This document shows positions 6,437 to 8,701 of a stretch of 41,554 bases of DNA, in pieces. Each line of letters starts with the position of its first letter. Within the stretch, counting starts at the first letter, position 1. Made by a program: the position numbers and the translations under genes. The DNA comes from Candidatus Curtissbacteria bacterium RIFCSPLOWO2_01_FULL_41_18 (GTDB lineage Bacteria; Patescibacteriota; Microgenomatia; Curtissbacterales; GWA2-41-24): assembly GCA_001776475.1 (NCBI GenBank), contig MFBQ01000025.1, positions 1 to 41,554 of the forward strand, given 5' to 3'. The notes beneath the pieces were generated by a model, which saw nothing but the letters and a program-made list of their open reading frames with translations, was not told the DNA's origin and searched no databases.

Positions 6437-8701
6437 ATGAATCCACAAACGCCAATCGAAAATCTTCCCGGCATTGGCAGTTATTATGGCCGCAAACTTA
6501 AAAAGCTGGAGATAAATACTTTAGAGGATTTGATCTACCACTTTCCATTTCGTTACGACGATTTCTCCAAAATCGCCCAAATCCAAAATTTAACACCCGG
6601 CGAAAAAATTAGTATTCAAGGTGTTATCTGGCAAATCCGAAACATAAGAACCAGACGCGGCAAATTCGTGACTACCGCTACTATTGCTGATCAATCAGGC
6701 ACCATCGAGGTCATCTGGTTTAACCAGCCTTATTTAACCAAAACTCTTAAAGCGGGACTTCAAGTTTCACTATCGGGAAAAGTTCAGCAAGACGGCAATA
6801 AAATTAAATTGGTCTCACCTTCATACGAAATCCTGCGCAGTCAGCAAACTCAAGTCAATCAACCCAATCGTCATCCTGGAGTGGCAACGACCACGATAGG
6901 ATCTAGAGATTCTGTCGTGAAGTTTACCCCGAATCAAAGAGAGATCCTTCGCTCCGCTCAGGATGACAGAAATGAGGGGCTCCAGAATGACAAGGTAGAT
7001 GGGCCGTCAACTCTCCATACGGGCCGCCTCGTACCTATTTACCCCGAGACTGAAGGCCTTTCATCCAAATGGCTAAGAGGGAAAATTGCCGCAATCCTGC
7101 CTGCTTATCTTAAAACACAAAAGGACTTCCTCCCCCAAAAAATTTTAGAAAGCCAAAAAATGATTCCGCTTGATTCGGCCTTGACCAAAGTTCATTTTCC
7201 CCGGAATTATCAAGATGTTGAGACGTCCAGACGCAGGCTGGCGTTTGACGAACTTTTCTTAACCCAGCTGATGTCACAAATGAGAAAACGTCAGTGGGCA
7301 GAAGAAAGGTCGGCCCCCAAAATGCACATCCCGAAAGTTAAGCTGGCAAGTTTTATAAAAAGTCTGCCTTTCGCGCTAACAGGCGCTCAAAATAAAGCCA
7401 TTGCGCAAATAATTGAAGATCTCAAAAAGCCAAAACCAGCTAACCGACTTTTGGAAGGTGACGTTGGCTCGGGCAAAACCGTGGTCGCTGCCTGCGCCGC
7501 TCTTGTGGCTCATACAAACAACTTCGACACCCTCCTGGCTGCTCCCACCGAAATCCTAGCCTTTCAGCATCACCAAACTCTCACCAAAATCCTTAAACCT
7601 TTTGCAACCAGTGTTGGCATCTGGACTGGATCTAAAAAACAAAAGGGCAACATCGTCTGTGGTACCCATGCTCTTTTGACAACTTTCAAAGCCGAAAGAG
7701 AAGTCGGCTTAGTGGTAGTTGATGAGCAACATCGCTTTGGAGTTGCCCAAAGAGCTAAATTATTTTTGGATCAATCAGAAGAGTTTACTCCCCATCTTTT
7801 GACCATGACTGCAACTCCTATTCCTCGAACTTTAGCCCTGACCCTTTATGGCGATTTAGACCTTTCCGTTCTTGACGAAATGCCAGCTGGCCGCCAAAAA
7901 ATTGCCACTTTCGTTGTACCTAATCACAAACGTACTGAGGCCTACAAATTCATCGAAAAACAAATTGAAGAGGGCAGGCAAGCTTTCATCATCACGCCTT
8001 TCGTTGAGCCTTCCGAAAGCATGAACACTGTCAAAGCGGCTATCGACGAGTTTGAAAAGTTGAAAAAAATTTTCAGTGACATTTTGTCATCGCGAGCGCA
8101 GCGAAGTGATCCAACACGCAAGATTGCTTCGTCTGTGACTCCTCACAATGACAGAAACAATGCTCCAATAAAACTCGGGCTACTTCATGGCCGACTCAAA
8201 TCAAAAGAAAAAGAATTGGTTATTGATAAGTTTAGGTCAAATAAAATTCACATCCTAGTCGCAACTCCTGTTGTGGAAGTTGGAATCGACGTTCCCAACG
8301 CCACCATAATGCTCATTGAATCGGCTGAGCGTTTTGGCTTAGCCCAACTTCATCAGCTACGAGGCAGAGTCGGCAGGGGAAAGCATAAATCATACTGTTT
8401 CCTATTTACAGATTCACAAGCCGAAAATTCTATCAAAAGGCTTAAAAGCATGGAAAAAATCGCCGTCGGATTCAAGCTCGCCGAAATAGATCTTAAAATG
8501 CGCGGAGCGGGCGAAATATTTGGCCTTAAACAATCCGGATTTTTAAATTTTAAAGTTGCCGACCTTTCCGATCGAGTCACAATCGTTGCAGCCCAAAATC
8601 AAGCCCACAATATCTTGATAGCTGACCATACCCTTAAAAAATTTCCTGCTCTTCACGCGAAACTCGAAACCCTCAAAAACCAATACTCTCAGCCAAATTA
8701 A
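6437..8701 (+). CDS. recG: ATP-dependent DNA helicase RecG carrying two in-frame repeat insertions
   Basis: Walker A (GDVGSGKTVVA), DEQH box (VVDEQHRFG), TATPIPRTLA, LLHGRLKSKEKE, and motif VI (QLRGRVGRG), with an N-terminal OB/wedge region. The 754-aa length exceeds my recollection of typical RecG length by roughly the size of the two inserts. Confidence 0.93.
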   Translation: MNPQTPIENLPGIGSYYGRKLKKLEINTLEDLIYHFPFRYDDFSKIAQIQNLTPGEKISIQGVIWQIRNIRTRRGKFVTTATIADQSGTIEVIWFNQPYLTKTLKAGLQVSLSGKVQQDGNKIKLVSPSYEILRSQQTQVNQPNRHPGVATTTIGSRDSVVKFTPNQREILRSAQDDRNEGLQNDKVDGPSTLHTGRLVPIYPETEGLSSKWLRGKIAAILPAYLKTQKDFLPQKILESQKMIPLDSALTKVHFPRNYQDVETSRRRLAFDELFLTQLMSQMRKRQWAEERSAPKMHIPKVKLASFIKSLPFALTGAQNKAIAQIIEDLKKPKPANRLLEGDVGSGKTVVAACAALVAHTNNFDTLLAAPTEILAFQHHQTLTKILKPFATSVGIWTGSKKQKGNIVCGTHALLTTFKAEREVGLVVVDEQHRFGVAQRAKLFLDQSEEFTPHLLTMTATPIPRTLALTLYGDLDLSVLDEMPAGRQKIATFVVPNHKRTEAYKFIEKQIEEGRQAFIITPFVEPSESMNTVKAAIDEFEKLKKIFSDILSSRAQRSDPTRKIASSVTPHNDRNNAPIKLGLLHGRLKSKEKELVIDKFRSNKIHILVATPVVEVGIDVPNATIMLIESAERFGLAQLHQLRGRVGRGKHKSYCFLFTDSQAENSIKRLKSMEKIAVGFKLAEIDLKMRGAGEIFGLKQSGFLNFKVADLSDRVTIVAAQNQAHNILIADHTLKKFPALHAKLETLKNQYSQPN
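6869..6994. mobile_element. Family-A palindromic repeat element (126 nt), in-frame inside recG
   Basis: Near-identical to 37300-37434 in carA. It has nested inverted repeats: gtcatcctg (6870-6878) with caggatgac (6959-6967), aggatct with agatcct, and terminal cctggag with ctccag. It translates as RHPGVATTTIGSRDSVVKFTPNQREILRSAQDDRNEGLQNDK. Confidence 0.75.
8085..8153. mobile_element. Family-B palindromic repeat element (69 nt), in-frame inside recG
   Basis: Termini tgtcatcgcgagc and ctcacaatgaca are imperfect inverted repeats. The termini and the aagattgcttcgtc core match the intergenic copy at 24850-24945. It translates within ILSSRAQRSDPTRKIASSVTPHNDRNN. Confidence 0.65.

Follow-up and report, generated by a model that had tools for sequence, protein, structure and literature searches.

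In-frame copies of a tagged palindromic repeat in recG and carA of a Candidatus Curtissbacteria contig, probable gene-less derivatives of a GIY-YIG element

Introduction

Why should two essential genes with no relation to each other, in an uncultured bacterium from groundwater, share a stretch of nearly identical, translated DNA? The question is raised by contig MFBQ01000025.1 (assembly GCA_001776475.1, Candidatus Curtissbacteria bacterium RIFCSPLOWO2_01_FULL_41_18), whose 41,554 nucleotides we call the window: recG and carA each hold, within their reading frames, one copy of a hairpin-forming repeat that we term the family-A element. An earlier note, made from the DNA letters alone, had taken this repeat for DNA that is mobile or recombining, and not for a protein domain, and had likened it to the Rickettsia palindromic elements (RPEs). 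Genomes of the Candidate Phyla Radiation (CPR, or Patescibacteria) are about 1 Mb in size and are usually called streamlined, and the colonization of housekeeping genes by in-frame palindromic repeats is best known from Rickettsia.

Our analysis indicates that each window copy is probably a non-autonomous palindromic repeat of the superfamily of CGTC/TGTC-tagged repetitive extragenic palindromes (REPs), equivalent to the “Ssn-related motifs” (SRMs) and including RPE-4 and RPE-6, and a gene-less derivative of an element that encodes a GIY-YIG nuclease. CGTC-tagged REPs carry an unpaired CGTC or TGTC tag (variant CCTC) and a stem that starts with A-T/T-A (Di Nocera, De Gregorio and Rocco 2013, BMC Genomics, PMC3733652). 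They are found in five phyla, mostly as head-to-head dimers and often as heterodimers, with “no dedicated transposase” (PMC3733652). The Ssn proteins are GIY-YIG nucleases that cut single-stranded DNA site-specifically, and NTS/SRM repeats lie on both sides of their genes (Chenal et al. 2025, Nat Commun, PMC11893778). An Ssn-type gene encodes one GIY-YIG domain, cd10448-like, of about 95 residues.

Results

The first copy (6869..6994, plus strand) lies in recG (6437..8701, plus strand) and encodes residues 145-186 of RecG, between the wedge and helicase domains; the second (37300..37434, plus strand) lies in carA (36820..38019, plus strand) and encodes CarA residues 161-205. RecG, as identified by Pfam, NCBIfam, PDB alignments and 120 orthologues, has 754 residues versus mostly about 680 in its relatives, and CarA, as identified by Pfam and NCBIfam, has 399 versus mostly about 350. 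The strings reported by the earlier note were present at these positions, and its estimate by eye of about 8 substitutions and one 9-nt indel agreed exactly with MAFFT and BLASTN, which gave 8 mismatches and one 9-nt gap over 126 and 135 nt. The aligned bases are 93.6% identical, and the similarity ends abruptly on both sides, where the flanks are unrelated. One 19-mer of the left arm has exactly two occurrences in the window, as compared to zero expected from 100 dinucleotide-preserving shuffles. Both lengths are divisible by three, as had been claimed, and both copies are read in one and the same frame (RHPGVATTTIGSR...EILRSAQDDRNE.LQNDK) within the RecG and CarA open reading frames (ORFs), only two of the element's six frames being open.

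A 26-nt probe matched 18 metagenome loci, which after deduplication represented 16 distinct family-A copies; the short form of the element (66-95 nt) occupies 16 distinct sites in related metagenome contigs, numbered below with the prefix L. The basic element is built from two hairpin units, different from each other, that stand head to head with a short variable spacer between them. The consensus of the left unit is GTC-ATCCT-GGA-[GTGG..CCAC]-GAT-AGGAT-C, and that of the right unit, on the opposite strand, is GTC-ATTCT-GGA-[GC GAA GC]-GAT-AGAAT-C. Each unit has a basal stem of 5-6 bp, an internal loop and an apical sub-hairpin of 2-6 bp, followed by a tail of C and then variable bases. At the RecG linker of L024 and L026 the short form reads GTCATCCTGGAGTGGCAACGACCACGATAGGATC(T) - spacer - AGATTCTATCGCTTCG[variable]CTCCAGAATGAC.

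Both copies in the window belong to a long variant of this basic element, in which the apex of the right unit holds a third, nested unit. In the recG copy the left unit (6870..6903, plus strand) comprises the GTC tag, ATCCT-GGA-[GTGG CAACGA CCAC]-GAT-AGGAT and then C, and it folds with the tag unpaired; together with the next base it is identical to the L024 and L026 copies at 35 of 35 nt and is invariant in 13 of 14 aligned copies. The inner half of the right unit (6907..6917, minus strand; AGATTCTGTCG, or ..CGACAGAATCT on the minus strand) was delimited by alignment of the copies. It is followed by an extra piece of about 60 nt (6918..6979) that is specific to the long variant and holds the nested unit (6943..6967, minus strand; GTCATCCTGAGCGGAGCGAAGGATC on that strand). 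Both window copies have this piece, the carA gene of L047 has it in a variant form, and the 12 short copies lack it. The outer terminus of the right unit (6980..6991, minus strand; CTCCAGAATGAC, or GTCATTCTGGAG on the minus strand) is invariant in 14 of 14 aligned copies. In carA, the left unit (37301..37334, plus strand) differs from that of the recG copy by one substitution, the nested unit (37383..37407, minus strand) is identical to its counterpart, and the outer right terminus, again placed by alignment of the copies, lies at 37420..37431 on the minus strand. As the extra piece is common to both window copies, the composite must have been copied as one piece, either by insertion or by conversion.

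The GTC and the C that follows the stem are invariant in the 14 aligned copies. The base before GTC is T in 10 and C in 4 of the 16 copies, both window copies having CGTC, and the base after the GAC terminus is A in 13 of 16. None of the 16 copies is bounded by a direct repeat of 3 bp or more, the expected trace of a target-site duplication.

The nested inverted repeats described earlier (gtcatcctg with caggatgac, aggatct with agatcct, and cctggag with ctccag) are real, and folding of the two window copies as RNA gave z-scores of -3.4 and -3.9 (plus strand). The recG copy, the only one folded as DNA, gave a z-score of about -2 on either strand. The term “hairpin-forming element” nevertheless needs to be amended, as the hairpins are two (here three) small tagged ones and not a single long one. 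The stem of each unit is perfectly complementary to itself (ATCCT/AGGAT in the left and nested units, ATTCT/AGAAT in the right), while pairing of the left with the right unit produces mismatches at exactly the positions where the units differ. We therefore rejected one long hairpin as the selected structure; judging from these sequences, the small tagged hairpins appear to be the conserved objects.

Right termini of a “stuttered” form (..CAGGATGAC-A-10 to 15 nt-..CAGRATGAC) were seen at 9787-9933 of L024 and at 6955-6991 and 37395-37431 of the window. Up to three stand in a row in L024, and they recur across families and lineages. They may record nested insertion beside an existing terminus, or slippage.

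Family-A copies combine invariant arms with variable spacers and apices. Most of them are intergenic, and the others lie in frame in four proteins: RecG (three lineages), CarA (three lineages, including A-like variants), LepA and GatB. All of the coding copies use the frame HPGVATTTIGS...SLQND, the one that is consistently open. In seven of the eight (recG and carA of the window, L024, L026, L031, L035 and L047) the length from GTCAT to ATGAC is 2 mod 3, so that with one tag base whole codons are added, and in the eighth (L048) it is 72 nt, itself a multiple of three. On the other hand, intergenic copies fall in every length class and frequently contain stops. The length bias of the coding copies is what purifying selection on random insertions would leave.

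This distribution over 16 distinct sites bears out the proposal of a mobile or recombining DNA element, as do the orthologues, most of which lack the insert, and the conservation of the element, which far exceeds that of synonymous sites in its hosts. Between carriers, third codon positions of recG are only about 40% identical (saturated), while the elements of L024 and L026 are 97% identical overall and 100% at third positions. The carriers are not each other's nearest relatives and are interspersed among non-carriers. A single ancestral insertion in RecG is thus unlikely, unless several losses occurred. Such a pattern is not that of passive inheritance; it suggests that a tolerant or preferred site gained the element repeatedly, or that conversion homogenized the copies.

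The second of these routes could by itself explain why the window copies are so alike: older short copies may have stood at both linkers, and the long variant may have been copied between them by ectopic recombination through the arms, the donor being either the other window copy or a third copy. Several observations are consistent with gene conversion. Family-A or A-like elements occupy the same RecG linker in L024, L026 and P0021 and the same CarA linker in L048 and L047; the arms are almost identical over 12-35 nt; the L047 carA has a long right end of a similar kind; and the element is homogenized far beyond the host gene. Against it, carriers are scattered among non-carriers, and the arms are short for RecA-type conversion. 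In addition, the closest RecG (P0001, 89% core identity) and the closest CarA (P0135) have other sequence at the site, without family A, so that a pre-existing short copy in the window lineage is undocumented. We give this explanation a lesser but appreciable chance of being correct.

Tagged repeats are not confined to family A. About 35 tagged head-to-head dimers of several families were counted in about 244 kb of related contigs, about 40% of them within long ORFs; the window has 4 as compared to 0.4 expected, and three of these four are inside genes. The nested unit type is widespread across phyla. Its exact 25-mer was found in 11 IMG/VR contigs, and a genome-collection scan with a 20-mer of the nested unit and tail found head-to-head dimers in Opitutus, Reyranella and Hymenobacter. 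In the IMG/VR contigs L013-L023 (for example L022, 5023-5350) lone 25-nt nested units stand in apparent viral coding sequence; their reading frame is the same (..DEILRSAQDDKEK..), and one coiled-coil-like ORF has two of them. A further observation concerns the LepA/EF4 gene of L031 (OBEQ012868881.1), which carries two different in-frame tagged-repeat inserts: family A at residues 69-96 and a stuttered CGTC-2-type dimer (NRHPELPNRHPELVSGSNSQILNQVQNDK) at about residues 213-241.

In L029, L039/L043 and L048 the same two family-A units surround a GIY-YIG gene in a units-gene-units layout, and it is on this basis that we regard the short form as a probable gene-less derivative. L029 and L039/L043 contain a complete GIY-YIG ORF of about 95 codons exactly at the position of the short element's spacer, and the left-type flanking unit of L029 is identical to the window left arm. 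L048 has a truncated GIY-YIG ORF just upstream of carA, between right-type and left-type family-A units. These CPR ORFs match Pfam PF01541 with E values of 1e-11 to 1e-19. The L039 ORF, whose nearest solved structures are UPF0213 proteins, shares 45% identity over 92 residues with a gonococcal ORF that has dRS3/NTS-type repeats on its flanks, as ssnA does according to Chenal et al. (PMC11893778).

Similar arrangements were found elsewhere. The IMG/VR contig L054 has a GIY-YIG homologue flanked by units of the type of family B, a second tagged repeat of the window that is described below. PLSDB contributed homologues from Rhizobium, Sinorhizobium, Novosphingobium, Azospirillum, Neisseria, Planktothrix and Spirosoma. 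Each has tagged units of its own on its flanks, of CGTC-1, -2, -3, dRS3 or GTCATTCTGAG type, those of the Planktothrix gene being of the nested-unit type. In one case an Ssn-type GIY-YIG gene with CGTC-1 head-to-head dimers on both sides was seen between sufB and sufC, inside an Fe-S cluster assembly operon. The association of GIY-YIG genes with tagged repeats is already published and is not new here.

A different enzyme could be at work. If a tyrosine HUH transposase, of the REP-associated tyrosine transposase (RAYT) or IS200/IS605 TnpA type, mobilized the element, the GIY-YIG gene would be a passenger or an element-targeting nuclease of host defence. Tagged hairpins, head-to-head dimers and the lack of target-site duplication are indeed hallmarks of the RAYT-associated REP doublets (REPINs) as well (PMC3116915, PMC3333891). 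Yet the tag is (C/T)GTC rather than GTAG, and the survey of Di Nocera et al. turned up no RAYT between CGTC units (PMC3733652). None of the window ORFs had a Y1 transposase domain, the related loci not having been scanned systematically for RAYTs, and the gene between the units was always GIY-YIG, at 10 independent loci of five phyla and in one unclassified IMG/VR contig. An HUH enzyme is therefore improbable.

The origin of the window copies from a GIY-YIG element also has evidence to contend with, and the following points count against it. The unit hairpins are weak as DNA, and the z-scores of the smallest units are not significant. CGTC-1 to CGTC-4 have an 8-9 bp stem, a 4-5 nt loop and a short CCA-like tail (PMC3733652), unlike the units of families A and B with their 5-6 bp basal stem, internal loop and apical sub-hairpin. 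The published SRM pattern, HGTCWYN(0-2)YYVSBRHN(0-5)WNVSBRGN(0-2)RNCYNB, had no match on either strand of the window; family-A, family-B and nested units all fail it, while control units from Rhizobium and Neisseria match. Domain scans of the ORFs revealed neither a GIY-YIG gene nor a transposase in the window. A head-to-head dimer puts its two tagged hairpins on opposite strands, and single-strand excision in the style of IS200/IS605 is for that reason not obviously applicable. Mobility of Ssn or REP elements has never been demonstrated, Chenal et al. having remarked only on the IS-like layout (PMC11893778). Finally, there is no sign of current activity, as all of the fetched contigs of the window population carry both copies.

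As to how family A moves, we can only infer a scheme. The short elements would be gene-less derivatives of a GIY-YIG element of about 390 bp, and their copying, now or formerly, would be aided in trans by a GIY-YIG single-strand nuclease acting on tagged hairpins in single-stranded DNA. Copies that land in genes would survive only as whole codons without a stop and in tolerant surface linkers, where they would simply be translated as a hydrophilic loop of 42-45 residues; the grand averages of hydropathy of the two window inserts are -1.2 and -1.4. The long variant could have reached recG and carA as a fresh insertion, or an older short copy could have been converted to it.

Both inserts lie in interdomain linkers. 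The RecG insert falls between residues 230 and 247 of Thermotoga RecG (137/147 in E. coli), after the wedge and before the helicase, and the CarA insert falls between residues 201 and 209 of human CPS1, in the link of the N-terminal and amidotransferase domains. Both linkers are mostly short in 120 RecG and 120 CarA relatives, among which only the cluster of identical CarA proteins has the same insert. The earlier note had proposed alignment of orthologues as a check, and named homologous residues in distant orthologues as evidence for a native segment; most orthologues lack the family-A insert, and the linkers are short in most Curtissbacteria orthologues and also in the solved homologues.

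It could still be argued that both proteins own the segment natively, as a lineage-specific linker, or that selection keeps it in them as a functional peptide module, the DNA similarity being a by-product. Both inserts do lie at domain boundaries, and residues 186-202 of the CarA insert are modelled as a helix. Identical DNA, on the other hand, also occurs between genes and in lengths that break the frame, and third codon positions are as well conserved as the others. The AlphaFold2 model of CarA has low to moderate confidence in the insert (means of successive 10-residue blocks 62, 40, 55, 56 and 65), with residues 172-184 and 202-205 below 50. No full-length homologue of the peptide was found among 1.84 billion representative proteins: a HMMER peptide-profile search of this set returned only short EILR[SCF]AQDD repeats, in ORFs that look spurious, and the full-length composite is therefore not a common protein segment. 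A word-indexed set of 5.8 billion proteins gave 2 candidates and nothing that scored, which says little for a query of 45 residues. A native module is accordingly very improbable.

Other candidates were set aside. A ribozyme, intron or tRNA-derived origin is unsupported, Rfam (gathering and E-value thresholds) and a tRNA scan having given nothing, and an intein is ruled out by the size of 42-45 residues. A literature lookup with sequence strings of the element returned only unrelated primers.

Least of all can an error of assembly or binning account for the data: repeats are a classic source of metagenome misassembly and might have been collapsed or chimerically joined into recG and carA, but the exact RecG protein occurs on 4 contigs and the exact CarA protein on 11, from independent assemblies (NCBI GCA_001774815.1, whose contig MFBA01000056.1 matches the window, ENA and JGI) made with differing assemblers and samples, and the contig DNA that was fetched (6 for CarA, 4 for RecG) is in all cases >99% identical to the window, with identical junctions, no indel at the element and both reading frames open through the junctions. 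These 10 overlapping contigs answer the earlier concern about chimeric junctions, and no presence/absence polymorphism of either copy was observed among them. The best-named relatives belong to Candidatus Curtissbacteria (CPR/Patescibacteria).

The linkers that hold family A also receive other repeats. RecG residues ~135-190 and ~547-577 and CarA residues ~160-208 are hypervariable in alignments across Curtissbacteria, and both of the two RecG linkers checked and one CarA linker are repeat hot spots whose resident families differ from lineage to lineage. The same CPR contigs contain textbook CGTC-1 and CGTC-2 units, which are also found at these hot spots. Peptides typical of described CGTC REPs (VIPAKAGIQ, DSRFRGNDK and RHPELVSGS) stand at the hot spots too. 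The three linkers are general sinks for repeat insertions and are not specific for family A. Among the segments seen in them are NPKSEIRNPKQYQN..., PESRSMNQESR..., VTRDQ...TGDWRLAT, VILSEAKNL...RPQDDK and VIPAKAGIQ...DQVGNDK.

The earlier note had counted five in-frame inserts in the window. In comparison with solved homologues this number holds (two in RecG, one in CarA and two in CarB), while membership of the tagged superfamily is established for only three, the two family-A copies and one family-B element. The latter (GTCATCGCGAG...CTCACAATGAC; 8086..8152, plus strand) is in frame in recG at about residues 551-572, a site at which 88 of 121 RecG sequences have no insert. A second, intergenic family-B element (GTCATTGCGAG...CTCGCAATGAC; 24851..24945), with terminal complementarity of 11/11, separates a pilin-like gene from a gene of the type II secretion system (T2SS) F type; the family-B termini are GTCATYGCGAG and CTCRCAATGAC. 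Both carB inserts were defined against human CPS1, and both lack GTCAT/ATGAC ends. The first (39799-39933, 45 residues) has the outer inverted repeat AAAATCGGGT/ACCCGATTTT and four GTCGAC sites, and the second (about 40693-40740, 16 residues) is a hairpin, CCGCCAAAGACGAGGCTCGCTTCTGGCGG, flanked by the direct repeats AAAAGTCAAATGTC.

Two further features of the window were noted. At 5251-5610 there is an ORF of 119 codons for a “23S rRNA intervening sequence protein”, or bAvd-like protein (Pfam PF05635, E = 1e-27). On either side of it are inverted repeats of 44 nt (5208-5251 and 5611-5654), 80% complementary and rich in GGTACGAAA-like motifs, and the whole of 5208-5654 has the look of a small cassette inserted between tyrS and the next gene, outside any rRNA gene. 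At 29118-29143 the tandem heptamer GTTACTAG is repeated 3.5 times upstream of the minus-strand gene for the T2SS-E ATPase (27366-29111), just past its start-codon end, and this run has a partial inverted copy at 29190-29215.

Discussion

Family A might be the clearest structural evidence to date that CGTC-REP/SRM dimers, and by extension RPE-type inserts, derive without their gene from a minimal mobile element of about 390 bp whose only gene is a GIY-YIG single-strand nuclease. We put this forward tentatively, with the odds somewhat against it, on the grounds that one and the same asymmetric unit pair is found both around the gene and, elsewhere, closed up to a spacer of 2-20 nt. If it is true, Ssn would be the long-missing “transposase” of CGTC REPs and there would be a class of prokaryotic transposon with a GIY-YIG enzyme; elements of the CPR would then repeatedly and independently colonize the same permissive linkers in essential proteins, as a steady source of new protein segments. 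Whether Ssn nucleases move CGTC-type REPs was left open by Di Nocera et al. (PMC3733652) and only raised by Chenal et al. (PMC11893778). Family A is a convenient test of this question because its two units are distinguishable and occur both around an Ssn-type gene and as a gene-less doublet.

The new points of this study are the CPR setting, the repeated colonization of the same linkers, and a unit pair that links gene-less doublets to an Ssn-type gene. Patescibacteria are a second phylum in which in-frame colonization by palindromic repeats is frequent. In practical terms, such inserts lengthen the proteins, give unrelated ones a spurious “motif” in common and may lead homology searches and binning astray.

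How does family A compare with known systems? Like the CGTC-tagged REPs, it has an unpaired (C/T)GTC tag, a stem that starts with A-T/T-A and head-to-head dimers, and its copies are dispersed, mostly intergenic, sometimes in frame and without target-site duplication. Intragenic CGTC REPs add 20-45 residues, often to replication and repair genes (PMC3733652). Unlike the described CGTC REPs, families A and B have no CCA tail and have shorter spacers (2-20 nt), the host phylum is outside the five listed, and the VILS.. and ..AQDD peptides are not in the list of intragenic REPs of Di Nocera et al. Because the tag, the stem start and the dimers are shared but the 8-9 bp stem with its 4-5 nt loop is not, family A, family B and the nested unit are placed as new families within the superfamily.

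SsnA cleavage depends on the three bases before the palindrome and binding on the C after it (PMC11893778), and these are the positions at which family A has its invariant GTC and post-stem C. Chenal et al. pointed out an IS-like NTS-ssnA-NTS layout, did not show mobility, and described a role in limiting transformation in Neisseria (PMC11893778). The related contigs show this same layout, with family-A units on either side of a small GIY-YIG gene; the CPR example and the in-frame insertions are not covered in that paper.

RPEs are 100-150 bp long and lie in frame in unrelated housekeeping genes (Ogata et al. 2000, Science 290:347, via PMC10969869). Family A resembles them as a palindromic repeat that is in frame in several unrelated genes, has a single stop-free frame and is tolerated as an added peptide. 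It differs in its lineage, which is free-living or epibiotic CPR and not obligate intracellular alphaproteobacteria, and in its modular build from tagged units, which is explicit. A scan of the insert peptides in both open frames against NCBIfam, a library that we take to hold RPE domain models, gave no model at E ≤ 10. The likeness drawn by the earlier note is all the same better than an analogy: CGTC-1 includes Neisseria dRS3 and RPE-6 of Rickettsia conorii, and CGTC-4 includes RPE-4, so that both RPEs belong to the CGTC-tagged superfamily (PMC3733652). The kinship of family A to RPEs is at this superfamily level only.

Two more distant systems share parts of this picture. REPINs consist of two inverted REP units and a spacer, with a GTAG tag and a tyrosine HUH transposase (Bertels and Rainey 2011, PMC3116915). 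Family A is likewise a non-autonomous doublet with a single flanked gene as the presumed mobilizing enzyme and no target-site duplication; unlike REPINs, which are essentially extragenic, it has the tag (C/T)GTC and a GIY-YIG nuclease. Like the classical MITEs (miniature transposable elements with inverted repeats: Correia/NEMIS, ERIC and the Coxiella QMITE; PMC10969869), it is a small gene-less derivative with terminal inverted repeats and some in-frame fusions. MITEs mobilized by DDE enzymes make target-site duplications, whereas family A has none, and its full-length partner encodes a GIY-YIG nuclease. We found no description of such repeats in the literature on Patescibacteria. Family A is a new family, in a new phylum, of the known superfamily that unites CGTC-tagged REPs, Ssn-related motifs and RPE-like inserts.

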